Shown in pieces: positions 28,465 to 60,519 of a DNA stretch of 64,000 nucleotides. The notes below the pieces were generated by a model. The model was not told where the DNA came from. It saw nothing but the letters and a program-made list of their open reading frames with translations, and did not search any database. The translations under genes were made by a program, and so were the position numbers. This stretch comes from Anthoceros angustus (taxonomy: Eukaryota > Plantae > Anthocerotophyta): positions 1,984,001-2,048,000 of the forward strand of contig MU008164.1 in assembly GCA_010909165.1 (NCBI GenBank), written 5' to 3'. The first letter of the stretch is position 1. Each line of letters begins with the position of its first letter.

Positions 28465-31400
28465 CTACGCCCTGAGGAGGCGTCTTTATTATACTACTAT
28501 TCCGAGCTGATGTCGAGCTCAGTGTGCCCTAGCCCCCAACCCTACTATTTCCCTTAGCCTACCTATCTTCGCCTACGGCGGTGGGGCTGAGGGTGCCCAT
28601 GATTCCGCCATGGCGCTGGCGGCCCAATCCCTAGCTCTGGCAATTGAGGTGCATCCAATCGGATCATCCGCGATGCGAGCCCCTCCCCTTCCGAGACTCG
28701 CCGGTAGCCACTCAGGCGGTGGCTTGACGGCCGCGGTGACCACCAAGTCCTCCTCTTAGCCCCTCTTAACTCGTGGTGGGTCCGCTCTGCGGGTCCACTG
28801 AGGCTGCTACGCTTGGGTGGTGTGGGTGATTTTCTAAACCAAGTGGTCACAAAGAGGCCACATTTACCCTCTTTATCGTTGTAGACTTGAGATTCGTTCC
28901 CAAGGGAGTGATTTCGTGTCAAGATAACCAAAACATAGCCAATCCAACCCAACACAGACACGCCAAACATCTAGCAGTACAGACCAGGCTACTGACCTAA
29001 CAACACTCAGACCTGTGGCTATCTTAGCCACGCCTGACCCTGATGCCACCCAGCAACGGACTGACCCGGTTGCTAACTTAGCAACCGCCCTCTATTTCTA
29101 GCAGAGGGGGGTCCACCTTGGGATCAGGTCTGGCTATTAATAGGGGGGTGGGTCCCAGGTCGGGATCCAAGTGGATAAAGCTGACCTCTCTCTCTCTCTC
29201 TCTCTCTCTTACTCATCCACAAAGTTAGATCCACCAATCAGGATTACTGCTCTCATAACTTTCCCCCCCCTCCTCTCACTCTTGCAGCATTTCTTCAGAC
29301 TTCCTTGCCTCTCCAGCCTTTCAGCTCACCTTCCAGCTCCATCAGACCTCTCCAGCTCTCTTCAACTCTCCTTGAGGTGCCTCTCGCTCTCCCACACTCT
29401 CAAGTTTCCCCAGCAACTCTCTTCAACTCTCCTTGTTCTCACCTCACGCCCATTCAATCTCCACTTCCAGCTCACAGCTCCTCCCAGTCCTTACAAGGTT
29501 CTCATCCAGACCTTACAGCCCCAACCCTACTATTTCCCTTAGCCTACCTATCTTCGCCTACGGCGGTGGGGCTGAGGGTGCCCATGATTCCGCCATGGCG
29601 CTGGCGGCCCAATCCCTAGCTCTGGCAATTGAGGTGCATCCAATCGGATCATCCGCGATGCGGGGCCCCTCCCCCTTCCCGAGACTCTGTCAGGCTGAGC
29701 TACGGGCGGTGGCTTGACGACCGCAGTGACCACCAAGTCCTCCTCTTCGCCCCCTCTTAACTCGCTGGTGGGTCCCTGCTCTGCGGGTCCACCAGGAAGC
29801 TGCTCTGCTTGGGTGGTGTGGAGTGATTTTCTAAACCAAGTGGTCACAAAGAGGCCACATTTACCCTCTTTATCGTTGTAGACTTGAGATTCGTTCCCAA
29901 GGGAGTGATTTCGTGTCAAGACAACCAAAACATAGCCAATCCAACCAACACACAAACATCTAGCGATTCTGAGACTACCTAACAACACTCGGACACTGTG
30001 GCTATCTTAGCCACGCGACCTGATGCCACCCGGCAGCGGGAGACCGGTTGCTAACTTAGCCCCTCTATTTCTAGCGGAGGGTCCACCTTGGGATCAGTCG
30101 GCTATTAATAGTGGGTCCCAGTCGGGATCCAAGTGGATAAAGCTGACCTCTCTCTCTCTCTCTCTCTTACTCATCCACAAAGTTAGATCCACCAATCGAT
30201 TCTGCTCTCATAACTTTCCCCCCCTCCTCTCACTCTTGCACTTCTTGAGACTTCCTTGCCTCTCCAGCCTTTCAGCTCACCTTCCAGCTCCATACAGACC
30301 TCTCCAGCTCTCCAGTCCTTGAGGTGCCTCAGCCTCCCACACTCTCCAAGTTTCCCAGCTCTCTTCAACTCTCCTTGTTCTCACCTCACGCCCATTCAAT
30401 CTCCACTTCCAGCTCACAGCTCCTCCCAGTCCTTACAAGGTTCTCATCCAGACCTTACAGCCCTTCACCAACTCTCAAAATACTTGTTCACTACCTCCCA
30501 CAATCATTCCATCTCATCCACTCACGGGATCTTCAACCTCCACTCACAGCTCTCTTCTTGACCAAAACATAGCCAATCCAACCAACACGGACACGCCAAA
30601 CATCTAGCGATTCTGAGACTACCTAACAACACTCGGACACTGTGGCTATCTTAGCCACGACCACCGATGAATTAACGGATGGCCAACCTTAGCAACCGCC
30701 TCTATTTCTAGCGGAGGGTCCACCTTGGGATCAGTCGGCTATTAATAGTGGGTCCCAGTCGGGATCCAAGTGGATAAAGCTGACCTCTCTCTCTCTCTCT
30801 TACTCATCCACAAAGTTAGATCCACCAATCGGATTCTGCTCTCATAACTTTCCCCCCCTCCTCTCACTCTTGCATCATTTCTTGACTTCCTTGCCTCTCC
30901 AGCCTTTCAGCTCACCTTCCAAGCTCCATACAGACCTCTCCAGCTCTCCAGTCCTTGAGGTGCCTCAGCCTCCCACACTCCAAGTTTCCCCAAAGAACTC
31001 TCTTCAACTCTCCTTGTTCTCACACCTCACGCCCCATTCAATCTCCACTTCCAGCTCACAGCTCCTCCCAGTCCTTACAAGGTTCTCATCCAGACCTTAC
31101 AGCCCTTCACCAACTCTCAAAATACTTGTTCACTACCTCCCACAATCATTCCATCTCATCCACTCACGGATCTTCAACCTCCACTCACAGCTCTCTTCTT
31201 GACCAAAACATAGCCAATCCAACCAACACGGACACGCCAAACATCTAGCGATTCTGAGACTACCTAACAACACTCGGACACTGTGGCTATCTTAGCCACG
31301 ACCACCGATGAATTAACGGATGGCCAACCTTAGCAACCGCCTCTATTTCTAGCGGAGGGTCCACCTTGGGATCAGTCGGCTATTAATAGTGGGTCCCAGT

Positions 31401-33829
31401 CGGGATCCAAGTGGATAAAGCTGACCTCTCTCTCTCTCTCTTACTCATCCACAAAGTTAGATCCACCAATCGGATTACCGCCTCATAACTTTCCCCCCCT
31501 CCTCTCACTCTTGCATCATTTCTTGACTTCCTTGCCTCTCCAGCCTTTCAGCTCACCTTCCAAGCTCCATACAGACCTCTCCAGCTCTCCAGTCCTTGAG
31601 GTGCCTCAGCCTCCCACACTCCAAGTTTCCCCCAGCAACTCTCTTCAACTCTCCTTGTTCTCACACCTCACTGCCCCATTCAATCTCCACTTCCCCAGCT
31701 CACAGCTCCTCTCCAGTCCTTACAAGGTTCTCATCCAGACCTTACAGCCCTTCACCAACTCTCAAAATACTTGTTCAGCTACCTCCCACAACCATTCCAT
31801 CTCATCCACTCACGGGATCTTCAACCTCCACTCACAGCTCTCTTCTTCAGCAACACAAACATCACTTACAGACTTCTCCAGTCCTTCTTACTCCTCTCAA
31901 ACAGCCAATCAGCAACTCTCCATGTCCAGCATTCTCCACTTCTCTCACAGTTCACTTTTCCCTCTCATTTTCCAAACACAAGCCAGCCTCCAACTCACTT
32001 CAACCTTCCCTTCACACACACGGCTCCCGCCTTGTCTTCTTCTCTCCCGCGACCTTGACACTCTGAAAACTTAAACACAAGGTGAGTACTAGACAAGCTG
32101 CAGAGAATGAGTAAAGGAGGGCTGACCTCCCGGCTTCACCCCTTCCTCTTGACCTTGAGGACTCCCTCAAGGAGACCACAAGGCTCCCTCCCCTTGCTTT
32201 CCACCACTCTTGCGGATCGGCCACACGGATCTGGGCAACAGTAGTCTTCTCATGGCGGAGGCAGTGCCTAGGCTTACGACCTTGGATGGAACCCTCCCAA
32301 ACCCCGTGCTCAAACCAAGACTTAGGCCAACATTGCTTACATTTCATCAAGAGGCCTCTTATACCCAAGATCACAAAAGCGGCTTGGGCGCTTGCCAAAA
32401 ATACCAATCGGTCTTAGCCTACCAATCCTAGAGGCCTATCTATCAATTACATCCACTATGAGAGAGGATAAGATTCTGATCTATAACACATGGGCCTTTA
32501 GCTATTTGAGGCCACTTACCCTATTACCTCTCACAGGCCTCCTAGGCCGCCTAGCCCCATGTTCTCCTCTTGCTCTCCTCCCTCTTGGCTGGTTGGGCAA
32601 TCTCTCCCATAAAATCTCTACCTCCTCGGCTGGACTCCTCTCTCTCTTGTGCTCGCCGCATGATGCAGTACTCCTCCTCGGTGAGCTCTTGAATCCTGGA
32701 TGGGTCGGTGAGTTTCCTCCTTAAGAATCCAACCCATAGGTAGGATCCGGTGCCGTCAAGGCATGGATCAAGTACCTCCATGTCCCCTGTGCCCACAACA
32801 ACATAAACTTTCGGAGACAATCTTCTCTCCAGCCAAGGAGAATCCGGGCACATGGTTATCTTGATAAGCATCCCTCAATCTAATGCACCATTGGGAAGTT
32901 AGACTTCTTAGGCGGTGCTTACCGCTCCCCACAGCTGTTGTCCTCCTCCTGTCAGCCCCTTCTTCCTTGTTGTAGCTCTGGTCTTGGAGCTGTTGCTCCC
33001 TTAGCAGTGCAGGTGTGCTTCCTTAGCGGCGGCGGTTGCTTGCTTAGCAACCTCCTCGGTGCTAACTCGCAGATTCTTCCATGGGAGGCTCGCATCTTCC
33101 ACGGTGGCTCTCCTTGCAATCCACAGCCCTCTTGGCCTCTTTCCACCTTTCCTTGCCTCGTCCCTCTCCTTCTTGTGGCGCCCGGCATCCAGTTTCGGCT
33201 GAACTTGCGCATCGAGATGACATTCTGCGGCTCCCCTATGGTGCTTTGTGCGTCCGAGAGTGAACCATGAGGTTTCGATCCTTGGTCTTGCAACTCTTCT
33301 CGGACCTTCCTTAATTCCTTCCATGCTACCTAGGCGTCCCTCAAGACCTCCTTCTCCCCTGACCTTGACACTCTGAAACACAAGGTGAGTACTAGACAAG
33401 CTGCAGAGAATGAGTAAAGGAGGGACAGCCTCCCGGCTTCCGACCCCTTCCTCTTGACCTTGAGGACTCCTCCAAGGAGACCACAAGGCTCCCTTGCTTT
33501 CCACCACTCTTGCGGATCGGCCACCGGATCTGGGCAACAGTAGTCTTCTCGGCCCTTGGCGGAGGAGGCAGTGCCTAGGCTTCTGACCTTTGGATCTGGA
33601 ACCCTCCCAAACCCCGTGCTCAAACACCGAGACTTAGGCCAACATTGCTTACATTTCATCAAGAGGCCTCTTATACCCAAGATCATTACAAAAGCGGCTT
33701 GGTGCTTGCCAATCTGTCGGTCTTAGCCTACCAATCCTAGAGGCCTATCTATCAATTACATCCACTATGAGAGGATAAGATTTGATCTATAACACATGGG
33801 CCTTTAGCTATTTCAGGCCACTTACCCTA

Positions 33830-35890
33830 TTACCTCTCACAGGCCTCCTAGGCCTAGCCCCATGTTCTCCTCTTGCTCTCCTCCCTCTTGGCTGGTTGGG
33901 CAATCTCTCCCATAAAATCTCTACCTCCTCGGCTGGACTCCTCTCTCTCTTGTGCTCGCCGCATGATGCAGTACTCCTCCTCGGTGAGCTCTTGAATCTG
34001 GATGGGTCGGTGAGAGTTTCCTCCTTAAGAATCCAACCCATAGGTAGGATCCGGTGCCGTCAAGGCATGGATCAAGTACCTCCATGTCCCCCATGCCCAC
34101 AACAACATAAACTTTCGGAGACAATCTTCTCTCCAGCCAAGGAGAATCCGGGCACATGGTTATCTTGATAAGCATCCCTCAATCTAATGCACCATTGGGA
34201 AGTTAGACTTCTTAGGCGGTGCTTACCGCTCCCCACAGCTGTTGTCCTCCTCCAGTGTGTTGCCCCTTCTTCCTTGTTGTAGCTCGGTCTTGGAGCTGTT
34301 GCTCCCTTAGCAGTGCAGGTGTGCTTCCTTAGCGGCGGCGGTTGCTTAGCAACCTCCTCGGCTGTTGCTAACTCGACAGATTCTTCCATGGGAGGCTCCG
34401 CATCTTCCACGGTGGCTCTCCTTGCAATCACAGCCCTCTTGGCCTCTTTCCAACCTTTCCTTGCCTCGTCCCTCTCCTTCTTGTGGCGCCCGGCATCCAG
34501 TTTCGGCTGAACTTGCGCATCGAGATGACATTCTGCGGCTCCCCTATGGTGCTTTGTGCGTCCAGGCTGAACCATGAGGTTTCACGATCCTTGGTCTTCC
34601 GCAACTCTTCTCGGACCTTCCTTAATTCCGCTTCCATGCTACCTAGGCGTCCCTCAAGACCTCCTTCTCCTTCATTCCTGGAGCTCCTTCTCCCCTGTTG
34701 TTCCCCTGCGCTGTAAACCTAACAAAGAGGACGAGCTATCGGTCCTCCATCTCACCTAGTGCGTGCCATAGAGACCGGTTCTTGTAGGGTGATGTTAGGC
34801 CCCAAACCTCGGGATGGGTTCCCTCCTTCCTATCTGGCGCTCTCCCTGCGACCACTTGGGTATACTTGAGGTCACCCCTTGAGCAGTGGTGACTTTCTCG
34901 GGTCAGCTCGGCCGTGCCCAAGGTTGGGTGATTCCTCCTGTTGACTGTGGCTTCCCGGCCCTCTTGGCCTCTTTCCAACCTTTCCTTTGTCTGCTTGTCC
35001 GGGTGAGTTCCGGTCGTGCTCTTGTGGCTCTAGGAGTGGTTGGAGTCCCCTGTTGCTCGGCCGACCTCTCTTGGTGCTGTTGGGGTCTTAGCAACTCCGG
35101 TTGCTTTGTTAACCATGGTGATGCCTTAGCAATTGCCACATTCCTCTTCATGGACACTTCAGACTTCTCATCTTCACTCCCAGTGCCACTGGAGATGGCC
35201 TCTTCCTCGACTCCTCTTTGGGCTTCCTTCTTTCAAACACCGGCCTCCAGGCATGGAAGGCTGAGACCATCTCCATCCCCTCCAGCAACTTGGCATGGTC
35301 AAAAACGTGGATTAAGAAGGGAGATAGAGCTGAGGGACTGGGTGATGGTAGGGTCAAGTGGTCCCTCTCCCTGCACGCTGTGTCATAGAACATCCTGGCC
35401 CAATCTATCTTGGACCCTCTCACCACCTCATAGAAAGACAAGAAAATGGTCGACAATGTGCTCTAGCTTCTTAGTGAGTGAGAGCACAGGATCCACTGGC
35501 TAATCCATTTCGGGGTCTAACTTGTTGGTGACCCAGCCATTCTCCACCCTAGACAATGTGGGAGCAATGGCGACTTGTGCCTCCTGCGACTTTTGGGAGA
35601 TGGCTGAAAGGATCAATGATTATTCCACCACATTCCTCTTGAGCCTCTCATAGACACTGGAACAATGAATATTCCAGTGCGGGGTTGGTTCTCGTGTTGC
35701 CTTCCCTGTGGCCTTCTCCCTCATGTCTGCACATTCCCAAACCAATTAGGCTGTAGCACCACTTTTTGTCCATGAAGGACAAGTGATGCTTAGCCACCAA
35801 AGACCCGCCTTCACTCTCCGATTGCCCCATGTTGGGCCATTGGGCGATGGTAATGGCCTCAATGGCCACGGAGTGGTCTTCTTAGGCCAT
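33830..35890 (-). pseudogene. LTR(U3)-encoded ORF of family A, frameshifted in this assembly
   Basis: Reconstructed across frames and LTR copies: MAPKKTTPVAIEAI...YERPQEECGGIIIDPF...VENGWVTNKL...LTKKLEHIVDHFLVFL/YEVVRGSKIDWARMFYD...MEAELRKVREELRK. Also present from 57562 and 56615. Confidence 0.6.
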
Positions 35891-36180
35891 GCTTCACGAC
35901 AGTAGAGTTCACAGTAAGGTCCGGCTGCGATACCACCACAGCACTTCCCCACTTCAAGATTCTGTCCCCTTTGTTAGTCGGCTCCCGACTTTCGAAATTT
36001 CCGCTTAGCTCGGCTTGTTGGAGGATCCCCTCTCTTTCGGCCCAACTTCACGATGGCGGGTGCCCCGCCTGATTCACTCCGATTTGGGAAGCGCCATCAC
36101 TCAATTTATTGATTCACCTATCTTCGGCCGTTTTACGTGTCCGACTTGACCCGGCACCCTCGATTGAAACCCGTTCTTAT

Positions 36181-36565
36181 CCTCCGCCTCCGCCTCCGCC
36201 TCCGCCTCCGCCTCCGCCTCCGCCTCGCTCGGCTTGAGGTGTACCTGCGCTTGAGGTGTATCCTGCAACCAGTTGAGCGGTGACCCCTGTGCGCTTTGTC
36301 TTGCCCTTGTCCGCGACCTCCCAGTGCGTGCGACGCCTGCCCGTGCACTTCCCTTTCCTTGCGCATTCCTCGGCCCCCCTCCTATCGCCGCTCTCCTTAG
36401 CTCCTTGCGGCACGGCGCGCCACACGCCGCCTTCTCCGGAGCTCGGCCCGATTACTCCCACCCGCCATTGGGGCGGTCGCGCGCGCCTTGCCGATTGCCC
36501 CGCCACGCTCCGAGCTTGAGGTGTGGCCTTCTCCGCCTCCGCCTCCGCCTCCGCCTCCGCCTCCA
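36181..36565 (+). repeat. (CCGCCT)n hexamer tracts in the LTR (36181-36226, 36533-36565)
   Basis: Directly visible. Confidence 0.9.
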
Positions 36566-37088
36566 CCGCTTCTCCGCCTCATCCGCCGCATCCGCCCGGA
36601 CTGCCATCCCATCGGCCCTCTCGAGTGCGCTCGTCGCTCGCCTTCCGTGTCATTGCCTTGTGTCCTCCCTCGTCCCCGGTCACGCTCCGAGCTTGAGGTG
36701 TGGCGCGCCTTGATTCTGCAAATATTCCTTGTCCTTCCGGACTTAATTTAAATAGGACCCCGTTACTTCCGTTGGTATTTCCAATGATTTCGCTCAATTA
36801 GGTTTTCCAGTTTATCGGAAAATAACTCCGACTTGGTTGCTACCATAGCAGGCTCCGTCGGTTCTTTGTCATATAGCAGTCCTGTCGGCCTAGCACAGCG
36901 TTAGCAAGCCGGCAACCCTCAAGGTTACATCCGGGATCGGGACTAGACTCTCTTCCTCCTACTAGGCTCTAGTAGACTTTTCTTATTTCCTAACCTACTT
37001 CACATTCCAACTCCACACGATTCTCACAACTTAAACACAAAACAAAAAACACTCCTTTTAGAAGTCGAGTACCCATGTGGTCACCACA

Positions 37089-37100
37089 TACTCCCTTCTC
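37089..37100 (-). other. Polypurine tract
   Basis: Minus-strand gagaagggagta immediately precedes the LTR start TGTGGTGA. Confidence 0.7.
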
Positions 37101-37109
37101 ATTTGTTGG

Positions 37110-39947
37110 CGTCCCGCCAACTTATTAATACTTCTTCACGCCAACCATTGACCGGTTGTAGCGAGAATCCATCAAGTTCTGCTGTATGGATCCATTGTCG
37201 AACACTTGCGGCACCACAGCAGGACCCATCCATCTAAGATGCACTTCGAAGTGCATGTACTGTATCATCTGACAGCAAGTCCCGGAACAACGTACTCTTG
37301 TTTTTGCGACTTAGGTCATGCCATTCCTTCCTCTTCTCTTGGGCGTTACAGGGCGCCAAGGCTTGTTCCTACTCTCCATGTGCTGAACAAAGCCTATGAG
37401 CCTCTCCAATGGCTCTCCTCCACCGTCATCCTCTTATGCTCTTGGACTCTCAAGCGTTGGCACTTCAAACTCAATGGGCATGGTGGTGAATGCCCATAGG
37501 TGAGGTAGTAGGGAGTCTATTGTGTGGTCACCTTCTCCGCTGTCCTATACGCCCACAACGCTGAGTGAAGCTTCCGGTCCCAATCGTAAGTGTAAGTGAT
37601 GGTTAACTTGTTAAGGATCCTACAAAGCAACCCATTAGCTTTCTCCGTGAGTCCATTCGCCTTGGGGTTGTAGGGGGTGGTCTTCCTGTGGCTGATGTTG
37701 AAATACTTGACCATGTGTGAGATCACCTCGTTGATGAAATGGGTACCCACAGCTAACCAACTCCAGGCACCGTACCTTGTGATGATATGCTCAAACAAGA
37801 ACACAGCCACCACATTTCTGTGTCCACGGGCAAGGCTTGAGCTTCCACCATGCGGTGTGGTCCGTTGCTACGAGAATATATTGGTTGGCTCCCTTGGTCT
37901 TGGGGTTGAATCGGCAGTCAATCCCCACTTCTCAAAGGCGCCAAGGCTAGGATAGGGACCAATGGCCCCTTTGTGTGGTCTGGTTGGCTTCAACCCTTTG
38001 ACATGCATCATGGCAGCTTGATGAACTCCCTAGCATCAGCATGCAAGGTTGGCCACCAATACCCTGCCTCCAAGATCTTCTTACAGGTCACGTTGGCAGC
38101 GTAGTGACCTCCAGCCTCCTCCTCATGCAAGGCGCTGAGAACCCGGTCCTTTTGACCATCCTTGACCCACAACCTCTCAACTCCATCTGGCCCTACCCTG
38201 TACAGCTTGTCCCCGCGCTTAACAACAGGTCTGGAGAAGTATAGGAACAACCTCTGTTCTTTGTTGTAGCAGTATCGACCCGTTGCTAAAAGCGAAAGAC
38301 CTCCTCATAGGCTGGCACCAAACTTCTCCCTCCCTTCTCATTTGGCTGTACCTCCGTTTCCATCAACTTGGCATTGGGCCTAGCACTCTCCTCATCCTCC
38401 TCCAACAAAAGCTTCATCCGGAAAATGATCTTCTTGATCATGCTCCACCTTCTCCGTCTTCAAGCGAGACAAGTAGTCGCGTTCACATGCTTCCTCCCTC
38501 ACGTGTCTCCACCGTGAAGGTGAACTCTTACCTTGAAGATCCAGCGAGCTATCACGGCCGGATAGGTCCGCCTTGTTGACAAGATGCTTGAGAGCAAAAT
38601 GGTCAACATGAAACACAAACTCATAGGAGAGGAGATAATGGAAACTTTCTTCGAATACACCATGCCAAGGGCTTCCCTTTCGATTGTTGTGTACTTGCGC
38701 TCCGCATCGGTGAGTTGCCGTCCAGCGTAGTAGATCGGGTAGTCTCTCTTCTTGTTATCCCGCTGGCTCAAGATTGTACCAATGGCGAAGGCGGAAACAT
38801 CCACGTAAATATGAAACTTCTTGCTCCAATCCGGTCCCTTGAGGGTTGGGGCTGTTACCAACGTGGTCCTCAAATCTTGAAATGCTGCCTCCCTCTCTGT
38901 CCAGTCCCACTCTTGGTCCTTCCTCAACAAGCTGGTCGTGAGCAGCCCTCCTAGCAAAGTTAGGCACAAAGCGTAGTAGCCCACCATGCCAAGGAACCCC
39001 GGAGTTCCTTGAGAGTTGTTGGCTTCGGGCAACAATCATCTTCACCTTATGCGGATCAACTTGATGCCCGTCTTTGAAATTGCACAACAAAATCCCCTCC
39101 GCATGCCAAAGTAGCATTTCTCGGGATGTAGGCAAAGTTGAGTTTCACGACACCTCGCCAAGCACCGCCAAGTGATCCGGTGCTCCTCCACACTCCCAAA
39201 CACACAAAATCATCTAGGAATACCTCCATGAACTTGTGGAGATACTCCTTGAAGATCTCAACCATGCTCGCATGAAGGAACCGGCGCTCCGTCAATCGAG
39301 CACTTCTCTTGTGAAGGTCCCCAATCCGTTGTGAAGGCTGTTAGAGGTCACTCTCCCTCAAGTGCGGTGATTGTACCCAGTACGTCAAGAGCAGTACACA
39401 TCTTCCGACCACCAAATCCGAGGATGTTGTCGATGAATGGCGGAAAATGGTCCTTCTTGGTTGCTTTGTTGAGCTTCCTCCAATCTTGGCATACTCGAAT
39501 CTTTCCGGTACCTTCTTGAACCACAACGATCGGAGCCACCCACTCCGTGTTGACGATTGGATAGATGGCGTCGCCTTCAAGTACAATTCAATGCTCCTTC
39601 ACCTTGATGAGTACTTTGGGTTCAGCTTGTATTGGGAATTCGCGAGTCGCTCCACGGCTCCAAATCGATCCTATGCTCCCCACTTCTTGGGAATCCCTTC
39701 ATATCATCACCTCGAAGGCAAACACGTCGATGAACTCGAGGCTGCTGTTCCTTCTTCCAACTTCTGGTTCCGGTATCGTGCAAACTTGACACCTTCGGGC
39801 AATACCTCCACATCCTTAATCTATCCTTGTACCCATTCTCGCTCCACGGGTGCTGAACTCTCACCAAACCCTTCCTCCGGTTCACGAGGTCCTCTTCCCT
39901 CATCCCCACTCCTAAATAGGTCCTCAGTGAATCGAATATGGCTCAGC
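37110..39947 (-). pseudogene. Gypsy pol: reverse transcriptase, RNase H and integrase (frameshifted)
   Basis: RT: IRVCQDWRKLNKATKKDHFP and FMEVFLDDF. RNase H: FHIYVDVSAFAIGTILSQ...YTTIEREALGMVY. Integrase: LHEEEAGGHYA...GYWWPTL, GTHFIN, TPYNPKANGLTE and ALWAYRT. Confidence 0.9.
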
Positions 39948-47456: not shown

Positions 47457-50400
47457 CTCCTCTCCTCGACTGTTCATGCCTTCCTTCCCTTAGCAACCTT
47501 TGTTCGGTGGGTGCTTCCTTATAACCGCCTGGGTAGCTCGGTGGTTCTCCGTCACTCCTTATTTGGTGGGTCCTCCATGAACCCAAAGCAGTCCACCAAA
47601 TTGAGGGAGTAAGGGATATCCCTCCTATACTCCTCCTCCTCATCTGACCATGTGATATGTGCAAACGGAAATTTGTCCAGATTCTCTCCTTCTTCCTCCA
47701 GGTCAGATGTTTCTCCAGCCGATGTGTATCCTTCCGTTGCTGTAGGAGTCTCCCCACAGTAGGTATCCCTGCTCCAACTCAAACAAATTCGGCCCTCCTT
47801 CGTCTTGGGGTCCCAATCCATTGGCTTAAAAGCCACTTCCTTCCTCCCCCAAGTCATCTTGCATCTTGAGCCATCTGAGGTCCTTCCCAATAGGATGTCG
47901 TACCACAGCGCCTTGTCTTTGGATAACCACATAGTCCATGAGATAGGGAATGGTCCCTATGATGGTGGTTACTCCTTGATTCTCCACAGTGCATTTTTGA
48001 CATGTCGGTAATCTCGGCCTTTGTGGTATGCTCAATGTCAACCCAAGCTTCCTTGCTATTGCTTCCGTCATGATGTTCACCCGGATCCGGTATCCGGGGA
48101 ACCGCTTGATGAGACGGCGATCTCCACTTGCGACTCCGGCCCTTGGTCTATCATGGACACTAGGTTGTTGTAGGGTCGGCACCCTTGGTCTGGCTTGGGC
48201 AATCGCCTCTTCCTCTTGGGTTGCGCTTCTTGCAAGGCCCTCGAACTTGTTGCTGTACTTGGTTGTCCTTCAATAGTTGACCAAGCGTGATGGCAAAGCT
48301 GCGATCCATGATGGCTTGACAAGGTTAAATGGTCCTCGATCGGTCCCTCCTTCTTCCCAACGATCGCGGTTGCCCCTTAGCAACGTCGGTTGCTTAACAG
48401 CGGCCGCCTTAGCAGCGGTTGCTAACGAGGAGGACTTCTGCGGTCTCGAGGATCACGAGCTCGGCGGTTTTTTGTCTTGGTCAATTCCTCCTCTATCATC
48501 TCCATGACTTCGGCGGCGTCCGGTGGAAACTCGGGTTTCCTCTCCCTTTTCTTTGGAACTTCTTTTCTCGGCATGGCCCCAGGCGATTCACTCCTTGATT
48601 CTTCCTTCTCGGGGTTCTCCTTCTCAAGTGTCTCCTCGGATCCGTTCCCTCCGGGCTTGGAGTGCTCTCTTGACTTTGTGGTGATTCCACCTCCGTCTCT
48701 TTCTTCTTCCATGACTTCCTCCTAGCTTTTCACTCCTAGTGCGCCTGACCATGGCTGCGACCTCTCGTAATAGTCTCCTCACCCCCAGTCCATCTAGCTC
48801 CCGCAACACCATGGCTTCGCATCCTCCCCAAACAGCCATAAGGGCATCCTCCACGTGCATGGTGCCACGGCTCCTTGGGATGCTTGCTGAACCCCACGGT
48901 GGTATCCTGCTCCAACTCAAACAAATTCGGCCTCCTTGTCTTGGGGTCCCAATCCATTGGCTTAAAAGCCACTTCCTTCCTCCCCAAGTCATCTTGCATC
49001 TTGAGCCATCTGACGAGTCCTTCCCAATAGGATGTCGTACCACAGCCTTGTCTTTGGATAACCACATAGTCCATGAGATAGGGAATGGTCCCTATGATGG
49101 TGGTTACTCCTTGATTCTCCCACAGTGCATTTTTGACATGTCGGTAATCTCGGCCTTTGTGGTATGCTCAATGTCAACCCAAGCTTCCTTGCTATCCTTC
49201 CGTCATGATGTTCACCGGATCCGGTATCCAAGGGAACCCGCTTGATACCGACGGCGATCTCCACTTGCGACTCCGGCCCTTGGTCTATCATGGACACTAG
49301 GTTGTTGTAGGAGTCGGCACCCTTGGTCTGGCTTGGGCAATCGCCTCTTCCTCTTGGGTTGCGCTTCTTGCAAGGCCCTCGAACTTGTTGCTGTACTTGG
49401 GTTGTCCTTCAATAGTTGACCAAATAATAGTGCTGATCCATGATGGTGGCAAGGTTAAATGGTCCTCGATCGGTCCCTCCTTCTTCCCAGCGATCGCGGT
49501 TGCTCCCTTAGCAACAACGTCGGTTGCTTGCTGCTTGGCCGCCGCGCGGTTGCTAACCGAGGACTTCTGCGGTCTCGAGGATCACGAGCTCGGTTTTTTG
49601 TCTTGGTCAATTCCTCCTCTATCATCTCCATGACTTCCGGCGTCGTCGGGAAACTCGGGTTTCCTCTCCCTTTTCTTTGGAACTTCTTTTCTCGGCATGG
49701 CCCCAGGCGATTCACTCCTTGATTCTTCCTTCTCGGGGTTCTCCTTCTCAAGTGTCTCCTCGGATCCGTTCCCTCCGGGCTTGGAGTGCTCTCTTGACTT
49801 TGTGGTGATTCCACCTCCGTCTCTTTCTTCTTCCGGCTTCCTCCTAGCTTTTCACTCCTAGTGCGCCTGACCATTGCAGCCTCTCGTAATAGTCTCCCCA
49901 CTGCCCCCAGTCCATCTAGCTCCCGCAACACCATGGCTTCCGCATCCTCCCCAAGCGACCATAAGGGCATCCTCCACGTGCATGGTGCCACGGCTCCTTG
50001 GGATCTTGCTTGCGAACTCCATCACGGTGGTTGAGCAATTGAGCAGTCTTCCTCGGTTTGGGCAAGTGACACTCACCATGACCACATTGTTTGCGGTCTT
50101 GCACGGCCGTTCGTAGTCACCATTGGCTTTGTCTTGTTGGCGATGAGCTATTTGCATAATGACCAAAGCCCCTGATTGTAGCGAACCGCACCCGTTGCTT
50201 GGTTAGCAACCACAGGCACTTGGTTATTCTGAATGCCGCCCCATGGAATTTCGCGGCATCGATGGATGGGCGGTCTTGAGAATCTTGTCCCTGGAAACCT
50301 CACGGATCGGTAGGTATCCTCCAGCGATCCTCTTCCTCCTCCTCGTGGCGAGCATGTGCACCTTGGCCACATGGCAGTTGGACTTGGTGTGGCACGGCTG

Positions 50401-53065
50401 GCCACAAGTGGAACAAAGCAGGTTAGCCGAGCTTTGGATGCTCTCCTCTTCTCATGCTCCTTCACGGCGTTGAGGTGAAACTTCTCGAATTTGCTCATCA
50501 TTTCCTCCATCTTCATTTCTTGTTGCACCTTCTTGCGGCTTGACCTCCTCTTGACTTGTTCCACTTCCTTCTTAGCACTAGCAACCTCTTGTTTAGCCAC
50601 AGCGCTCCCTTGATCCTCGAGCCTCTGGTTTCTTCTTAGCGTCAACCTTCTTCTTCTTCTGCGTCTCTCGTCTTGAGGATTCTTCCTCCGTCTTGCCATC
50701 CTCAGGAAGAGTCCTCCAGTCTGAGTCTTGAGAGGTCACTCTCCTCGAAGATTCTTCCTCCGACGAAGATCCCTTGTCCTTCTTCCCTCGCTTGGACTTC
50801 TTCTTCTTGCTCTTTTCCTTCTTGTGCTTCTTCTTGTCCAAGGAGTTGGATTCTTCGTAGTTGAGTGCCGCCTTGATGGCCTTGTCGTCTTCTCCGCTTG
50901 CGGCCTCACATGTCGGCCCATCTCGGATCTAACCTTAGCAAACCACCGAATGGCACAGTCAGTGAGGACCACTACGATCGCAAGTTAAGAACCTCTCAAC
51001 ATAAGCTTGCAAGGTCTCCTTCCTTCTTCTCCTCAAAAACTCCAACTTTGACAACACGTAGCCTTCTACATCTATTCCCTGAACCTCTCACAAAAGGCTT
51101 TCTTGATTCGTTGAAGGTTCTTTGTCTTGATGCCTTGAGGTACTCCCTCTTGTACCACTTGGCTGGCCCTCCATGAAGAACTCCGTAGAAGAGTGAATCT
51201 GTTGCGGATCCCAGTTCACGATTTGCAATGGTTAGTTGCTCAAAGCGTTCAACAAACTCGTCGGATCTTCATACCTTCTTCTCTCCATACGGTGGGTATG
51301 GGCTTGTAGTTATTGCAAAAGGCTGAAGTCGCCATGACGGTCGTCACTATCCGGCAACCGCGATTGTTGGTCTAACAGGATCTCTGTTAGCATACTGTCA
51401 AAAGTTCTTGAGTTCACGGCAGTTGCACAAGTTGACCGCGGAGGTCGGAAGACAAGGATGGTCATCGTCCTAGGCACTGTTGCTTGCTTCTTGGCTCCTC
51501 CAGTCGTTGCTTTGTGCTCTCCTCGGCTCTCGATGCCCCGCCCCCGCTCCACGGCAGCGTTGTCTTCTTTGTCTTGTGGCGATGAGCTATTTGCATAATG
51601 ACCAAAGCCCCTACGTTGTAGCACACCGCCCGTTGCTTGGTTAGCAACCACAGGCACTTGGTTATTCTGAATGCCGCCCCATGGAATTTGTGACATCGGA
51701 TGGGCGGTCTTGAGTCTTGTTGTCCTTAGGAAACCTCCACGGATCGGTAGGTATCCTCCAGCGCGGCTCTTCCTCCTCCTCGTGGCGAGCATGTGCACCT
51801 TGGCCACATGGCAGTTGGACTTGGTGTGGCACGGCTGGCCACAAGTGGAACAAAACAGGTTAGCCGAGCTTTGGATGCGACTCTCCTCTTCTCATGCTCC
51901 TTCACGGCGTTGAGGTGAAACTTCTCGAATTTGCTCATCATTTCCTCCATCTTCATTTCTTCTTTGTTCTTCTTGTGCGGCTTGACCTCCTTCTTGACTT
52001 GTTCCACTTCCTTCTTGGCACTAGCAACCTCTTGTTTAGCCACAGGCCGCTCCCTTGATCCTCGAGCCTCTGGTTTCTTCTTAGCGACATCAACCTTCTT
52101 CTTCTTCTGCGTCTTTCGTCTTGGGGTTTCTTCCTCCTCGTCATCCTCAGGAAGAGTCCTCCAGTCTGAGTCTTGAGAGGTCACTCTCCTCAAGATTCTT
52201 CCTCCGACGAAGATCCCTTGTCCTTCTTCCCTCGCTTGGACTTCTTCTTGCTCTTTTCCTTCTTGTGCTTCTTCTTGTCCAAGGAGTTGGATTCTTCGTA
52301 GTTGAGTGCCGCCTTGATGGCCTTGTCTCGTCCTTCTCGCAGCCTCACATGTCGGCCCATCTCGGAACCTAACCTTAGCAAACCACGAATGGCACAGTAA
52401 ATCGAGTGAGGACCACTACGATCACGCAAGTTAAGAAACCTCTCAACATAAGCTTGCAAGGTCTCCTTCCTTCTTCTCCTCAAAAACTCCAACTTTGACA
52501 ACACGTAGCCTTCTACATCTATTCCCTGAACCTCTCACAAAAGGCTTTCTTGATTCGTTGAAGGTTCTTTGGGGTCTTGATGCCTTGAGGTACTCCCTCT
52601 TGTACCACTTGGCTGGCCCTCATGAAGAACTCCGTAGAAGAGTGAATGCTGCAGATCCCAGTTCACGATTTGCAATGGTTAGTTGCTCAAAGCGTTCAAC
52701 AAACTCGTCGGATCTTCATACCTTCTTCTCTCCATACGGTGGGTATGGGCTTGTAGTTATTGCAAAAGGCCGGAAGTCGCCATGGCATCGTCACTATCCC
52801 GACAACGCGATTGTTGGTCTAACAGGATCTCTGTTAGCATACTGTCAAAAGTTCTTGAGTTCACGGCAGTTGCACAAGTTGACGGAGGTCGGAAGACAAG
52901 GATGGGTTGTCCTAGGCACTGTTGCTTGCTTCTTGGCTCCTCCAGCGGTGCGTTACTTTGCTCTCCTCGGCTCTCGATGCCCCGCCCCCGCTCCACGGCA
53001 GCGTTGTCTTCTTCTTGAGTCTTCTCTTCACGGGAGTCGGAACTTTCGGACTCAATGGGTAGCAT
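47457..53065 (-). pseudogene. Gypsy gag and aspartic protease (frameshifted, partly duplicated)
   Basis: Protease D(T)GSG-VNIMTEAIARKLGL...ILLGR (~47880-48110, duplicated ~49020-49240). Zinc knuckle CSTCGQPCHTKSNC (~50375-50415, duplicated ~51810-51855). Gag-like ETLQAYVERFLNL. Confidence 0.85.
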
Positions 53066-53140
53066 CCATGTATCACCTCAAGACTCCCAATACACTACTA
53101 GACAAGGTTAGTCTACTCTAAGGTCTTGACAACAATGACA

Positions 53141-53155
53141 CTCCCAGCAGCGCCA
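53141..53155 (-). other. Primer binding site TGGCGCTGCTGGGAG
   Basis: Begins with TGG three nt after the 5' LTR end (...CCACA ttt TGG) on the minus strand. Confidence 0.7.
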
Positions 53156-53158
53156 AAA

Positions 53159-56100
53159 TGTGGAGTGATTTTCTAAACCAAGTGGTCACAAAGAGGCCAC
53201 ATTTACCCTCTTTATCGTTGTAGACTTGAGATTCGTACCCAAGGGAGTGATTTCGTGTCAAGACAACCAAAACATAGCCAATCCAACCAACACGGACACA
53301 CCAAAACATCTAGCGATTCTGAGACCAGCTACTATCCTAACAACACTCGGACACTGGCTATCTTAGCCACGCTCTGATACCACCAGCGGGCGACCGGTTG
53401 CTAACAGCAACCGCCCTCTATTCTAGCGGAGGGTCCACCTTGGGATCAGTCGGCTATTAATAGAAGGTGGGTCGGTCGGGATCCAAGTGGATAAGGTGAC
53501 CTCTCTCTCTCTCTCTCTCTTACTCATCCACAAAGTTAGATCCACCAATCGGGATTCGCTCTCATAACTTTCCCCCCCTCCACTCTTGCACTTCTTGAGA
53601 CTTCCTTGCCTCTCCCCGGCCTTTCAGCTCACCTTCCAAGCTCCATACAGACCTCCAGGCTCTCACAGTCCTTGAGGTGCCTCTCATGATCCTCCCCCAC
53701 TCTCCAAGTTTCCCAGCTCTCTTCAACTCTCCTTGTTCTCACCTCCTCCCCCATTCAATCTCCACTTCCACTCACAGCACCTCTCCAGTCCTTACAAGGT
53801 TCTCATCCGGACCTTACAGCCCTTCACCAACTCTCAAAATACTTGTTCACTACCTCCAATCATTCCATCTCATCCACTCACGGGATCTTCAACCTCCACT
53901 CACGGCTCTCTTCTTCAACACAAACATCACTTACAGACTTCTCCGGTCCTTCTTACTCCTCTCAAACAGCCAATCAGCAACTCTCCATGTCCGGCATTCT
54001 CCACTTCTCTCACAGTTCACTTTTCCTCTCATTTTCCAAACACACAAGCCCACGCCTCAACTCACTTGACTTCCCTTCCACACACACAGGCTCCCGCCTT
54101 GTCTTCTTCTCCCCTGACCTTGACACTCTGAAAAACTTAAACACAAGGTGAGTACTAGACAAGCTGGGAGAATGAGTAAGGAGGACCTCCCGGCTTCACC
54201 CCTTCCTCTTGACCTTGAGGACTCCTCCAAGGAGATCACAAGGCTCCCTCCCTTGCTTTCCACCACTCTTGCGGATCGGCCACACGGATCTGGGCAACAG
54301 TAGTCTTCGTGGCGGAGGAGCGGTGCCTACTTACAGAGGATCAGGAACCCTCCCAAACCCCGTGCTCAAACACCAAGACTTAGGCCAACATTGCTTACAT
54401 TTCATCAAGAGGGCCTCTTATACCCAAGATCATTACAAAGCGGCTTGGGCTTGCCAAAAATACCAATCGGTCTTAGCCTACCAATCCTAGAGGCCTATCT
54501 ATCAATTACATCCACTATGAGAGGATAAGATTTGATCTATAACACATGGGCCTTTAGCTATTTGAGCCACTTACCCTATTACCTCTCACAGGCCTCCTAG
54601 GCGCCTAGCCCCATGTTCTCCTCTTGCTCTCCTCCCTCTTGGCTGGTTGGGCAATCTCTCCCATAAAATCTCTACCTCCTCAGCTGGACTCCTCTCTCTC
54701 TTGTGCCATAGTGCAGTACTCCTCCTCGGTGAGCTCTTGAATCTGGATGGGTCGGTGAGAGTTTCCTCCTTAAGAATCCAACCCATAGGTAGGATCCGTG
54801 CCGTCAAGGCATGGATCAAGTACCTCCATGTCCCCTGTGCCCACAACAACATAAACTTTCGGGAGACAATCTTCTCTCCGGCCAAGGAGAATCCGGGCAC
54901 ATGGTTATCTTGATAAGCATCCCTCAATCTAATGCACCATTGGGAAGTTAGACTTCTTAGGCGGTGCTTACCGCTCCCCAGCTGTTGTCCTCCTCCACAG
55001 TCTTACATTGCCCCTTCTTCCTTGTTGTAGCTCGGTCTTGGAGCTGTTGCTCCCTTAGCAGTGCAGGTTGCTTCCTTAGCGGCGGCGGTTGCTTAGCAAC
55101 CTCCTCGGTATTGCTAACTCGACAGATTCTTCCATGGAGGCTCGCATCTTCCACGGTGGCTCTCCTTGCAATCCACAGCCCTCTTGGCCTCTTTCCAACC
55201 TTTCCTTGCCTCGTCCCTCTCCTTCTTGTGGCGCCCGGTGTCCAGCAGTTTCGGCTGAACTTGCGCATCGAGATGACGTGCGGCTCCCTATGGTGCTTTG
55301 TGCGTCAGGAGTGAACCATGAGGTTTCGATCCTTGGTCTTGCTGCAACTCTTCTCGGACCTTCCTTAATTCCTTCCATGCTACCTAGGCGTCCCTCAAGA
55401 CCTCCTTCTCCTGCTTCATTCCACGGAGCTCCTTTGCTCTCCTGTTGTTCCCCTGCTGTAAACCTAACAAAGAGGACGAGCTATCGGTCCTCCATCTCAC
55501 CTAGTCGTGCCATAGTGAGACCGGTTCTTGTAGGGTGATGTTAGGCCCCAAACCTCTGGATGGGTTCCCTCCTTCCTATCTGGCGCGTGACTCTCCCTGC
55601 GACCACTTAGGGGTATACTTGAGGTCACCCCTTGAGCAGTGGTGACTTTCTCGGGTCAGCTCGGCCGTGCCCAAGGTTGGGTGATTCCTCCTGTTGACTG
55701 TGGCTTCCCGGGCTCCTGAGCTGGTCTTGCTCTGGCCTTTCCTTTATCACCTTACATCCGGTGAGTTCCGGTCGTGCTCTTGTGGCTCTAGGAGTGGTTG
55801 GAGTCCCATTGCTCGGCCGACCTCTCTTGGTGCTGTTGGGGTCTTAGCAACTCCGGTTGCTGTTTGGTGATGATACCTTAGCCGCCACATTCCTCTTCAT
55901 GGACACTTGGACTTCTCATCTTCACTCCCGGTGCCAGAGATGGCCTCTTCCTCGACTCCTCTTTGGGCTTCCTTCTTTCAAACACGGCCTCCGGGCATGG
56001 AAGGTGAGACCATCTCTATCCCCTCCGGACTTGGCATGGTCAAAACGTGGATTAAGAAGGAGATAGAGCTGAGGGGCTGGGTGATGGTAGGGTCAAGTGG

Positions 56101-58079
56101 TCCCTCTCACACTGTGTCATAGAACATCCTAGCCCAATCTATCTTGGACCCTCTCACCACCTCATAGAAAGACAAGAAAATGGTCGACAATGTGCTCTAG
56201 CTTCTTAGTGAGTGAGCAGGATCCACTGGCTAATCCGGCCCTCGAGGTCTAACTTGTTGGTGACCCAGCCATTCTCCACCCTAGACAATGTGGGAGCAAT
56301 GGCGACTTGCCTCCTGCGACTTTTGGGAGATGGCTTCTGAAAGGATCAATGATTATTCCACCACATTCCTCTTGAGGCCTCTCATAGACAGCTGGAACAA
56401 GAATATTCAGCGGGGTTGGTTCTCGTGTTGCCTTCCATGGCCTTCTCCCTCATGTCCTGCACCAGAACCAGGCTATTGTAGCACCACTTTTTGTCCATGA
56501 AGGACAAGTGATGTAGCCACCAAAGACCCGCCTTCACTCTCCGATTGCCCCATGTTGGGCCATTGGACAGTGGTAATGGCCTCAATAGCCCAGGAGTGGT
56601 CTTCTTAGGGGCCATGCTTCACGACTGTGGCCGGCCACACGCTCTGTGAGCGGTGCTGCTCTGGCCTTTCCTTTGTCCTTACATCCGGTGAGTTCCCGGT
56701 CGTGCTCTTGTGGCTCTAGGAGTGGTTGGAGTCCCCTGCTCGGCCGACCTCTCTTGGTGCTGTTGGGGTCTTAGCAACTCCGGTTGCTTTATTGTTGGTG
56801 ATACCTTAGCGCCACATTCCTCTTCATGGACACTTGGACTTCTCATCTTCACTCCCGGTGCCTGGAGATGGCCTCTTCCTCGACTCCTCTTTGGGCTTCC
56901 TTCTTTCAAACCGGCCTCCGGGCATGGAAGGTGAGACCATCTCTATCCCCTCCGGCAACTTGGCATGGTCAAAATGTGGATTAAGAAGGAGATAGAGCTG
57001 AGGGGCTGGGTGATGGTAGGGTCAAGTGGTCCCTCTCCACCTGTTGTGTCATAGAACATCCTAGCCCAATCTATCTTGGACCCTCTCACCACCTCATAGA
57101 AAGACAAGAAAATGGTCGACAATGTGCTCTAGCTTCTTAGTGAGCTGAGCAGGATCCACTGGCTAATCCGGCCAGCTCGAGGTCTAACTTGTTGGTGACC
57201 CAGCCATTCTCCACCCTAGACAATGTGGGAGCAATGGCGACTTGTGCCTCCTGCGACTTTTGGGAGATGGCTTCACGAAAGGATCAATGATTATTCCACC
57301 ACATTCCTCTTGAGGCCTCTCATAGCAACTGGAACAAGAATATTCAGTGCGGGGTTGGTTCTCGTGTTGCCTTCCACTGGCCTTCTCCCTCATGTGCCTG
57401 CTCCCAAACCAACAGGCTATTGTAGCACCACTTTTTGTCCATGAAGGACAAGTGATGCTTAGCCACCAAAGACCCGCCTTCACTCTCCGATTGCCCCATG
57501 TTGGGCCATTGGGCAGTGGTAATGGCCTCAATGGCCACCGGAGTGGTCTTCTTAGGGGCCATGCTTCACGACTGGCGTGGCTCGAGTTTCACAGTAAGGA
57601 GTCCGGCTATCGCGATGCACCACCACAGCACTTCCCACTTCAAGATTCTGTCCCCACTGCTCGTATCGCCTCCTGGCCGACTTCCCATCCAAAATTTCCG
57701 CTTAGCTCGGCTTGTTGGTGGAGGATCCTCTGGAAACATTTCCGGCTTCCAACTTCACGATGGCAAGGGTGTCACACTGAATTCACTCCAGCACTTGGAA
57801 AGCGCACAGCACTTCCCACTTCAAGATTCTGTCCCACTTGTTTGCTCAGTCTCCTCGGGCCGACTTCCCATCCGAAATTTCCGCTTAGCTCGGCTTGTTG
57901 GTGGAGGATCCCCCTGGAAACACTCTTCCAACTTCACGATGGCAAGGGTGTCTGCTGAATTCACTCCAGCACGCGGGCGTCACAGACCACAATTTATTGA
58001 TTCACTATCTTCCGGCCCGTTTTACGTGTCCGACTTGACACCCGGCACCCCTACGGAATTGAAACCCGTTCTTATCCTC
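53159..58079 (-). repeat. 5' LTR of the family A Gypsy, missing its outer ~0.9 kb
   Basis: Colinear with 29817-36184. Similarity stops at gaaacccgttcttatcctc (58079), where family B sequence resumes. Confidence 0.82.
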
Positions 58080-59834
58080 ACGCAACACATACGCCTCGCC
58101 TCGGCTCGGGCCGTCCAGCCCCTACCTCGGTTGTGTGAGGCTCGATGGTGTCCTTGGCCCTCTCTGCCTGCCTTCTTGCCTCCTCTGCCTCTTCTTGGGC
58201 CACTCCTCTCTGCCTACAAAGGTCCTCCGCCTTTGCTTGTGCCTCCTGCGCATGCTTCAGCTGTTCACACAGCTGGAGCACCCTGGCTCCGTCTTGTTGG
58301 GCGGACCTAGCCTCAGACTCGGCCGCCCGGCGTTTCTCCTCCTCGACTCTAGCGAGGGTCTCGCCTTTCCTCCGCTGCAGCGCTGGGCCCCTCAAGCTCC
58401 ACCATTAAATCTTGGTGGCCTCCACTTCCTGGGCCTTCTCTCCGCTGCATGAGACCCCAGCACTCCCTGGTGCAGCACCTCCGTGTCTCTTCCACGGCCC
58501 CAGACCGTGAAGTCTGCGGGCTCGGCACCGGGTCCGTTAAGGACCGCGGACCTTGATCAGGAGGGTGGCGGACTAGGGACTCCAGACAATCAGGACCCTC
58601 GGGTCACAGTGTTCGTCCGGGGCTTCCACCTCCTAGCCCTTTTGGCTGCTAACTCCTTCTCGCCGCCTTCTCTTAGGGGTCCGGAGGTGGTGAGGTCAGG
58701 GCTGGCTCGCTCCTCCTCGGTTGGTGATAGGGCGGGCTCGGGGTGGGGTTCTTGCCAGTGTCCCCGCTCCACAGGCGCATCTCGCTCGACCCTCCTTACC
58801 GCCTTTGCTTCCACTCCGTCGGCAAGGGTGAGGGAGCGCCCTGGGGGGGTGGTGGAGGCAGTCTTCCTCTTCTTTACCTCACTTTGGTCGGCGGGTTCGG
58901 TGGTGGGGCCGTCCTGGGTTCGGCTTGTTAGTACACACCTGCCTCCTCCGCTGCAGTCTCCTCCCAGGGGTGCTCGGTGGAGGGACTAAGAGGAGGGACT
59001 CGGAATTTCTTCCCATACTTCCGGCGAGGGGGTCAGGTCGGGATGGAGTCGGAATCCCTCCCAATCCTCATCGTCTGGACACTTTGGTCTTGGGGCGGCC
59101 CTCCGTCTCCGGTGCTCTCCCTTCTCGCTCGGCCTTGGGTAGGGCCACCAACCCCTTCCGGAGCGCTCGCTCCTCCTCTCCCTCCTTCAGGAGGTTAAGG
59201 TGCCCCCACACGTGAATGATAACGCGGCCGATGGGGGCGGCTTCTGCTGCCTTGACTTCACAGCCTCTGGTTGATCCGGGCGAAGATGATTCTTCCCCAG
59301 TCGGCTCTCTTCCCTCTCTGCAGAGCATGGAGGAACACCAGCAAATTGTCACCAAGGTGGTCCACCTTGGTGAGCATGTTCCAATGAACGATGATCTTTG
59401 CCACCACCCTCACCCTTCTGTCCAGCAGGTCTGACATCATCCACCCATTTGAGGACCGCTGCGTCCCTGGCCTCAAGAGCGCCGCCTTTGTCGCCTCCAC
59501 CTTTCCTTTCATCTTCAGGGGCTCTGGAACTATACCCCCGACCTCCTCCGCTGGGCGGTTGTAGACCGTCCTCAGGACCTCTACAGTCCATCTCCTAGGG
59601 TCCTCCCTCAGACTTTTGGAGCAGACCGCTTTGTTGGCCACCGCCAACATCTTCCGGGCGTACTCCCGGACCAGGGCCACGCTGTCGAAGGTCCACACCG
59701 CCTGGAAGATGTCTAGGTGTCATTCACCAGCTCTGCCTCACTTGACCGGTCGAAATCAGGTAGCGCTTGGTGACAATGTTCTTCTCTACTAGGCGCCACG
59801 GCTCCCAGACCTCCGCCGCCTTCTTCGGTCCCAT
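58080..59834 (-). pseudogene. LTR(U3)-encoded ORF of family B (outer copy), N-terminal part
   Basis: MGPKK start at 59834. ORF 59258-59698 reads VYNRPAEEVGGIV...NGWMMSDL...LTKVDHLGDNLLVFLHALQRGKRADWGRIIF. ORF 58078-58395 is coiled-coil-like. Confidence 0.65.
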
Positions 59835-60519
59835 ACCCTTGCGGTTGGCGTCTGCTGTGGTGGTGGGCGCCAAGACGCCAAGTTCCGCCAAGGCGCTCGG
59901 TTGGGCGATGGCGCTCGTAATTGGGCTTGGGCCAGAGATAGCGCCCGCAGGCGAGTGCTGGCGCGGCGGCAGCGAGCTGGCGAGAAGTTGTTCGAGAATG
60001 GCCTTCTCTCGATGCGAGCGTCGAATAGCAAGCGGGAGGCGTCCTTTCGCTGCCCGTAACTATCAGAGTCTTGCATTGCTTACTCTAGCTTCTGCTGCGC
60101 CGTCGCTCACGTACTCGACCTTGCGGCGCATGTGCGGGCGTGGTTACGCCTGACCCAGCAACGGTCTGGTCCCTTTGCATGCTCCTCCTCTCGGCCGTCC
60201 GCGTGGCACCCTTTGCCAAAATACGCTCCCCGTTCCAAAGTTACCTTTCCTAGCATACTTATCGTGACTTACTCCGGAGTGGAGTCCGGACTCACCCCGG
60301 TCTACTCCGGAGTGCGGTCCGTAGTCTCTCAGGCCGCTCCGGAGTGCGGTCCGGAGTCACCCTGTCTACTCCGGAGTGCGGTCCGGAGTCCCCCTGTCTT
60401 TACCCGTTCCGGTCTTATTTCCCTTTCCTCGTCTTATTTCTCACTCCACACTAACAAAAAAAACAAAAAAACTAGCTCATTACCTTTCTAAGGGGGAGAG
60501 CCTACGGTCCACAGTTTGT

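Follow-up and report, generated by a model that had tools for sequence, protein, structure and literature searches.

MMTV sag, HIV nef and foamy virus bel are coding sequences that lie inside a long terminal repeat (LTR), downstream of the polypurine tract (PPT). In plant Gypsy retrotransposons, large LTRs (~5 kb; 1.9-6.5 kb in Ogre) and accessory open reading frames (ORFs) are each already known, and the available text on Retand, Grande and Ogre (PMC7264820, PMC11963269, PMC6431247) describes accessory ORFs that are internal and mostly antisense, that encode Transposase_28 or plant mobile domains (PMDs), and that belong to elements with an aRH domain. In these accounts the Retand ORFs encode a globular domain together with regions that resemble Smc and PolIII gamma/tau, and the Grande protein is nuclear and has its own promoter; PMDs are carried by Gypsy elements (PMC5418596, available part). 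The extra ORF of Athila, as far as its accessible description goes (PMC6317226), is internal, placed after pol and before the 3' LTR. Exact-phrase searches of open papers turned up no retrotransposon with an ORF within its LTR, and the available portions of PMC12885004 and bioRxiv 2024.04.02.587720 describe none. Here we analyze 64,000 nucleotides of Anthoceros angustus (assembly GCA_010909165.1, contig MU008164.1, positions 1,984,001 to 2,048,000, forward strand; hereafter the window, whose own numbering we use). On balance we favor the reading that non-chromovirus Gypsy elements in this window have LTRs of 4.5-4.7 kb carrying a selected ORF, likely within U3, and that its product is likely a nuclear, trans-acting accessory protein directed at the element's own chromatin or transcription.

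An ORF inside the LTRs of nested units

Self-comparison and termini resolve three nested units, all on the minus strand. Element A is inserted within a unit that we call B-outer, and a third unit, B-inner, lies in turn within A's pol, between protease and reverse transcriptase (RT). B-outer is a solo LTR: it runs from TGTGG at 60513 to CCACA at 27802, has neither a primer-binding site (PBS) nor a PPT, and is flanked on both sides by the 5-mer CAAAC as target-site duplication (TSD; 60514-60518 and 27797-27801). A preliminary description of this DNA had closed the array at 28821, and B-outer runs on past that point. It had also treated the B units as one family; they are ~20% apart, and the homologous ORF that it placed in them at 59834 and 46857 is present in both. 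A homologous sense ORF is found in all four LTR copies, 0.6-1.2 kb from the LTR start, the two in A beginning at 57562 (5' LTR) and 35890 (3' LTR). With duplications collapsed, the LTRs range from 4.5 to 4.7 kb (A 3' LTR 4684 bp, B-inner 4455 bp). The units and their parts are as follows.

60514-60518, minus strand: upstream copy of the B-outer TSD, CAAAC, the same 5-mer as at 27797-27801
58090-60513, minus strand: B-outer solo LTR, 5' part, with TGTGG start, 679-bp CpG-rich leader and ORF from 59834
within 58090-60513, minus strand: ORF regions of this part, namely globular domain, proline-rich and coiled-coil-like
59261-59719, minus strand: conserved N-terminal domain, longest open stretch, 153 aa
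53159-58090, minus strand: A 5' LTR without the initial ~0.9 kb, with CCACA end and a junction to B-outer in GAGGCG-like repeats
54590-57562, minus strand: A LTR ORF, 5' LTR copy, ~2.0 kb collapsed, end approximate
54415-54422, minus strand: putative TATA, ~170 bp after the A ORF
53455-53462, minus strand: putative TATA of the preliminary description
53141-53155, minus strand: PBS of the TGGCGC type, separated from the LTR end by 3 nt
50127-53100, minus strand: gag, with a 1.44-kb false duplication (tblastn match of P0009, a Riccia relative, at 52769-52418)
47459-50031, minus strand: protease region and linker, with a 1.14-kb false duplication (P0009 match at 48080-47919)
39946-47458, minus strand: B-inner, a unit resembling a solo LTR within A's pol, 4455 bp after collapsing, with its ORF running from 46857 to ~40700
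40500-40555, minus strand: AATAAA-TATA-AATAAA block after the B-inner ORF, matching B-outer 28440-28495 (0/1000 shuffles)
37125-39945, minus strand: RT, RNase H and integrase, no aRH or chromodomain seen
38330-38344, minus strand: second PPT copy, exact over 15 nt, between RNase H and integrase
37091-37105, minus strand: PPT, directly after the integrase end
29817-37088, minus strand: A 3' LTR, 4684 bp collapsed, with 1197-bp CpG-rich leader
33850-35890, minus strand: A LTR ORF, 3' LTR copy, end approximate
27802-28820, minus strand: B-outer solo LTR, 3' part, with ORF C-terminus, TATA block (28464) and CCACA end
27797-27801, minus strand: downstream copy of the B-outer TSD, CAAAC

Element A has the order of a Ty3/Gypsy element: 5' LTR, PBS, gag, protease, RT, RNase H, integrase, PPT and 3' LTR. 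Its delimitation by PBS (53155-53141), PPT and TG...CA ends had been proposed before and largely stands, with the PPT moved from 37089-37100 to 37105-37091; TGTGG follows 2 nt on, at 37088, and CCACA ends lie at 53159, 29817 and 28821. The earlier figure of ~6 kb for the internal region agrees with 5977 bp after collapsing, and that of ~4.7 kb for the LTR holds in the 3' copy and not in the shortened 5' one. Once B-inner is removed from pol, the spacing left is ~380 codons, compared with 319 residues in P0009. The TGGCGC-type PBS probably resembles the Asp/Asn primers that characterize Athila, and the window contains no tRNA gene. An iMet-type PBS word at 53382-53371 was rejected, as it occurs in one LTR copy only and has no preceding CA.

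We place the ORF inside the LTR because it sits between the ends of the TSD-flanked solo LTR B-outer, because each of A's two LTRs contains it downstream of the PPT, and because the termini of A are homologous to those of B. The last 120 bp of A match both B ends (0/1000 shuffles each), and its first 120 bp, the best window of the entire A 3' LTR, match the B-outer start at a level reached in 3/1000 shuffles.

The repeats are affected by assembly. Between tandem duplicates (10 pairs) we count, per 100 bases, 1.1-2.5 substitutions and 1.1-6.3 indels, the latter mostly 1-2 nt long, and gag and pol are frameshifted in the same manner as the LTR ORF; in contrast, two host PPR genes are open over 1067 and 1047 codons. 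Because duplicate differences are indel-dominated and these host genes fully open, we infer that the repeats are poorly polished, long-read-type sequence with false duplications. One tandem duplication (28534-30463) spans the junction of the A LTR with B-outer, has indel-rich differences that mark it as an assembly artefact, and explains why the A end CCACA at 29817 recurs at 28821. In the 5' LTR of A the first ~0.9 kb of the ORF is duplicated, with a second ATG at 56615. At the junction of A with B-outer at 58090, ~1.4 kb of B-outer and the first ~0.9 kb of the A 5' LTR are missing, through either deletion or misassembly; GAGGCG-like repeats lie there. GAGGCG microsatellite arrays also occur in the A LTR leader (36172-36233 and 36522-36596), and similar words flank the 58090 junction. 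The two A LTRs differ by 1.9-2.4 substitutions per 100, no more than false duplicates do, and A is therefore young.

Contigs of a run labeled X1 had summed depths of ~800 on A's LTR (best bins), 60-560 on pol and 700-4500 on the B tail, values that are not copy numbers. As X1 barely covers B-outer, it is likely to derive from another individual. Among the listed contigs, none bridged a terminus or junction.

Conservation of the ORF and relatives of element A

The ORF was compared between B-outer and B-inner in ungapped blocks of at least 12 nt, trimmed by 2 nt, under three parameter sets. In the N-terminal domain 77 of 153 codons were scored, with 13/13/34 mismatches at codon positions 1/2/3; the proportions of nonsynonymous and synonymous differences, pN and pS, are 0.12 and 0.74 (Fisher 4e-17), the latter close enough to saturation to make the pN/pS ratio imprecise. 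All three parameter sets agree, and the other two frames are not significant. The coiled-coil-like part gives pN 0.28-0.34 and pS 0.54-0.58 (p 0.006-0.008), and a leader control is neutral. This codon pattern indicates strong purifying selection on the N-terminal domain. Between A and B the ORF is recognizable as protein (tblastn E 3e-7 to 6e-5 in three A copies; 0/60 shuffles as good for each copy) and gives no blastn match at the DNA level (best E 0.5). The motifs previously aligned by eye between A and B are present and collinear, and the proposal that they belong to a selected accessory gene in the LTR is supported by the codon test and the protein-only match.

Behind the N-terminal domain follow proline-rich and then charged, coiled-coil-like regions. 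The six stretches that were scored contain basic clusters and no strongly hydrophobic or transmembrane-like segment (top 19-residue hydropathy 0.97). Against 1.84 billion proteins a single, distant match was found (P0014, 244 aa, unnamed, E 3.7e-5), which keeps the same series of motifs, and word-index protein searches found homologues in 0/913 and 0/1667 candidates. A loose resemblance to PMD or transposon-associated folds had been suggested, and Pfam comparison gives it no support: neither the ORF fragments nor P0014 match any Pfam family at E<=0.1, Athila ORF-1, PMD and Transposase_28 included. A PDB sequence search with P0014 gave a best E of 0.11; AlphaFold models reached a pLDDT of 41 twice, and a viral fold search returned 0 matches at E<=0.001, which is meaningless at that confidence. 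By these sequence comparisons the protein is unclassified, outside the Pfam and PDB families searched.

Two contigs of a second run, X2, only guessed to be RNA, are ~84% identical to parts of the ORF (59640-59709 and 58220-58296), and none falls on 34680-41620. At best they hint that a third related family exists, and they are no sign of expression.

The features of A fit a Gypsy element that is no chromovirus, has no aRH and is nearest to elements of liverworts, with likeness to Tat-Z and Athila. Nine of 13 RNase H matches are named Marchantia or Riccia proteins, at 42-64% identity. The PPT lies within ~30 nt of the end of the integrase frame, and no chromodomain is seen in A or in its best pol matches. 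About 280 nt separate the RNase H and integrase matches, too short a gap for the aRH of TatI-III, Ogre and Retand, and three linker ORFs have no Pfam match; these frames were read by eye, and frameshifts lower the sensitivity. The native RNase H catalytic motifs are kept, also read by eye across frameshifts.

Tat Z1/Z2 elements, in the available part of PMC10508981, likewise have GAG-PR-RT-RH-IN without aRH and with native RNase H catalytic motifs, and occur in Marchantia, the source of A's best pol matches; the likeness is one of features. However, their listed representatives have LTRs of 108-2672 bp (length given in 35/43 rows), with 2672 bp in the Marchantia representative, compared with 4.5-4.7 kb here, and that part reports no LTR ORF. 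Athila resembles the present elements as a long non-chromovirus without aRH, with a 5-bp TSD (here from B-outer only) and an extra ORF 3' of pol, as described in the accessible text of PMC6317226; that ORF is followed by the 3' LTR, whereas the one here is part of the LTR, downstream of the PPT. With Retand, Grande and Ogre the ORF shares conservation and a globular domain followed by proline-rich and Smc-like regions, but in contrast to theirs it is sense, lies inside the LTR and encodes an unclassified domain. Phygy and Selgy, which the preliminary description had named as a check, are also non-chromoviruses without aRH from non-seed plants. As defined in REXdb, however, they have a 4-bp TSD, a tRNA-Trp/Ala PBS, a size of 4.4-10 kb and no extra ORFs, and are excluded because of the 5-bp TSD and ~15-kb size found here.

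Transcription, function and alternatives

We consider it likely that the ORF belongs to U3 and that the LTR has two promoters. The PPT directly behind pol would make the ORF part of U3. In both B copies the ORF is closely followed by an AATAAA-TATA block, with 580-660 bp left to the LTR end (0/1000 shuffles). A has two TATA candidates, the one proposed earlier (53455-53462) and a word similar to that of B at 54422, ~170 bp past its ORF. CpG is enriched in the leaders ahead of the ORF relative to the ORF itself (observed/expected 1.10, 1.05 and 1.20 in three leaders versus 0.45 in A's ORF), which suggests a second promoter there. A 32-bp tandem repeat in four copies (60270-60399) lies in the B-outer leader.

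Under this arrangement genomic RNA would start at the TATA behind the ORF and read gag-pol-PPT-ORF, which is the order in Athila. The contrast drawn earlier between plant elements and a retroviral trait was thus overstated: if the ORF is in U3, only the position of the PPT differs. U3 would be templated by the RNA downstream of the PPT, and plus-strand priming at a PPT directly behind integrase would copy the ORF, and all that follows it, into both LTRs. A shift of priming to an upstream purine tract is a plausible origin of the layout, because an extra PPT is reported in Athila4 and Calypso linkers (second-hand in the available part of PMC2829016). Expression of the ORF could be driven by the CpG-rich leader that opens the LTR, or could rely on splicing, and a solo LTR would then still hold a copy that can be expressed. 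Inside pol, the 15 nt at 38344-38330 repeat the PPT exactly (two matches in 0/100 shuffles). This second tract is a candidate central PPT, comparable to the internal PPTs named for Ty1 and HIV-1 in the same source; it may prime a second plus strand and thereby aid copying of a 15-kb cDNA.

At slightly less than even confidence, the ORF product may be a nuclear trans-acting regulator, by analogy with the nuclear protein of Grande, the Retand domain with Smc-like regions, and the PMDs borne by Gypsy elements. The roles proposed earlier, anti-silencing or integration targeting, likewise stand as analogy. More tentatively, the layout of complex retroviruses may have been reached independently by an old lineage of Gypsy elements of non-seed plants, with a U3-encoded trans regulator of a new family, its own promoter and a central PPT; jointly with this, and just as tentatively, each solo LTR may be a gene cassette that counters silencing of, or activates, the family after gag-pol is lost. 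The likeness to retroviral U3 genes is one of layout, convergent only, with no sequence relationship shown.

Several observations weigh against the U3 accessory gene. Protein family, fold and expression give its function no support. The ORF is continuous in none of the LTR copies, in A as in B: within the conserved domain no more than 153 aa can be read without a stop, the copy starting at 35890 falls out of frame directly past its ATG, and full lengths (~680 aa in A, ~1000 aa in B) are estimates from noisy sequence. Besides the near-saturation of pS, the first 36 codons carry no selection signal (p 0.31 in the expected frame, 0.007 in another), nor does the proline-rich part in the expected frame, and a tail control gives p 2e-4 to 2e-5 in one frame, which probably reflects the ORF C-terminus that the tail contains. 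The two A LTRs share only 3.8 kb, as the 5' copy stops at ~58090, and the LTR start is seen once. The first 120 bp of A do not significantly match the B-inner start (158/1000 shuffles), and the B-inner termini are degraded, without a clean TSD; a 5-mer recurs on both sides, ~22 nt past the homologous end, and is ambiguous. The TATA candidates of A do not clearly match those of B (137/1000 and 50/1000 shuffles).

The alternative that survives best, though we give it distinctly less weight, is an ORF in the LTR but in R/U5, with transcription from the CpG-rich leader and the ORF first on the genomic RNA, a layout that recalls the additional 5' ORF of Ogre, except that the PBS would come after it. 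All three LTR starts have CpG-rich leaders, in A a TATA-like word (36754) and AATAAA (36110/57998) precede the ORF, which would fit a U5 placement, and the region behind A's ORF is CpG-poor (0.45). The B leaders, however, hold neither TATA nor AATAAA among the patterns scanned, both B copies keep the TATA/AATAAA block behind the ORF, and a strong-stop DNA of ~4 kb would be required. The U3 placement put forward earlier thus has the B block in its favor, with the leaders and the TATA-like word of A on the other side.

It is also conceivable, but unlikely, that the gene lies in U3 yet does not control chromatin or transcription, and instead works within the particle or integration complex (as a target tether, nuclear-import factor or RNA chaperone) or in cell-to-cell movement. 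In favor of this are the lack of a chromodomain in the element, the long charged helical region of the protein, and earlier proposals of such roles for plant accessory ORFs; against it, no transmembrane-like segment appears in the stretches scored. Still less likely are short LTRs with an ordinary 3' internal accessory ORF, whose presence at the 5' end would stem from a tandem or chimeric structure or from misassembly. False duplications are many, one of them across an insertion junction, the A 5' LTR is truncated, and the listed contigs do not bridge the junctions. Yet B-outer has the ORF between TG...CA ends and a TSD, without PPT or PBS; integrase is immediately followed by the PPT and TGTGG; and no purine tract with a matching LTR start was found past the ORF. 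A captured, decayed sequence with no present function is very improbable: although every copy is frameshifted in this assembly, gag and pol are equally broken while two host PPR genes are open over >1000 codons, duplicate differences are indel-dominated, and purifying selection is strong.

If the U3 accessory gene is real, a selected LTR gene would outlive solo-LTR formation, the host's main removal route, would be present at double dose, and would be hidden from pipelines that treat LTRs as non-coding or mask them. The layout suggests that the position of the PPT alone can move a gene into the LTR, and the system allows a direct test of an accessory protein's role in a small-genome plant.

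Neighboring genes and repeats

The two intact PPR genes form a divergent pair of the PLS/E class, at 10034-13237 (minus strand) and 13815-16958 (plus strand), 77% alike and ~580 bp apart. Genes of this class suggest a land plant in which organellar transcripts are edited, probably a non-seed plant. A heme oxygenase coding stretch lies at 6465-7440 (plus strand), and a Myb/SANT-like DNA-binding ORF at 1786-2454 (plus strand), for which a Harbinger-type origin is a guess. Tandem arrays in the flanks occupy 4790-5172, 60545-60744 and 62058-62640, with units of 19, 33 and 33/117 bp.

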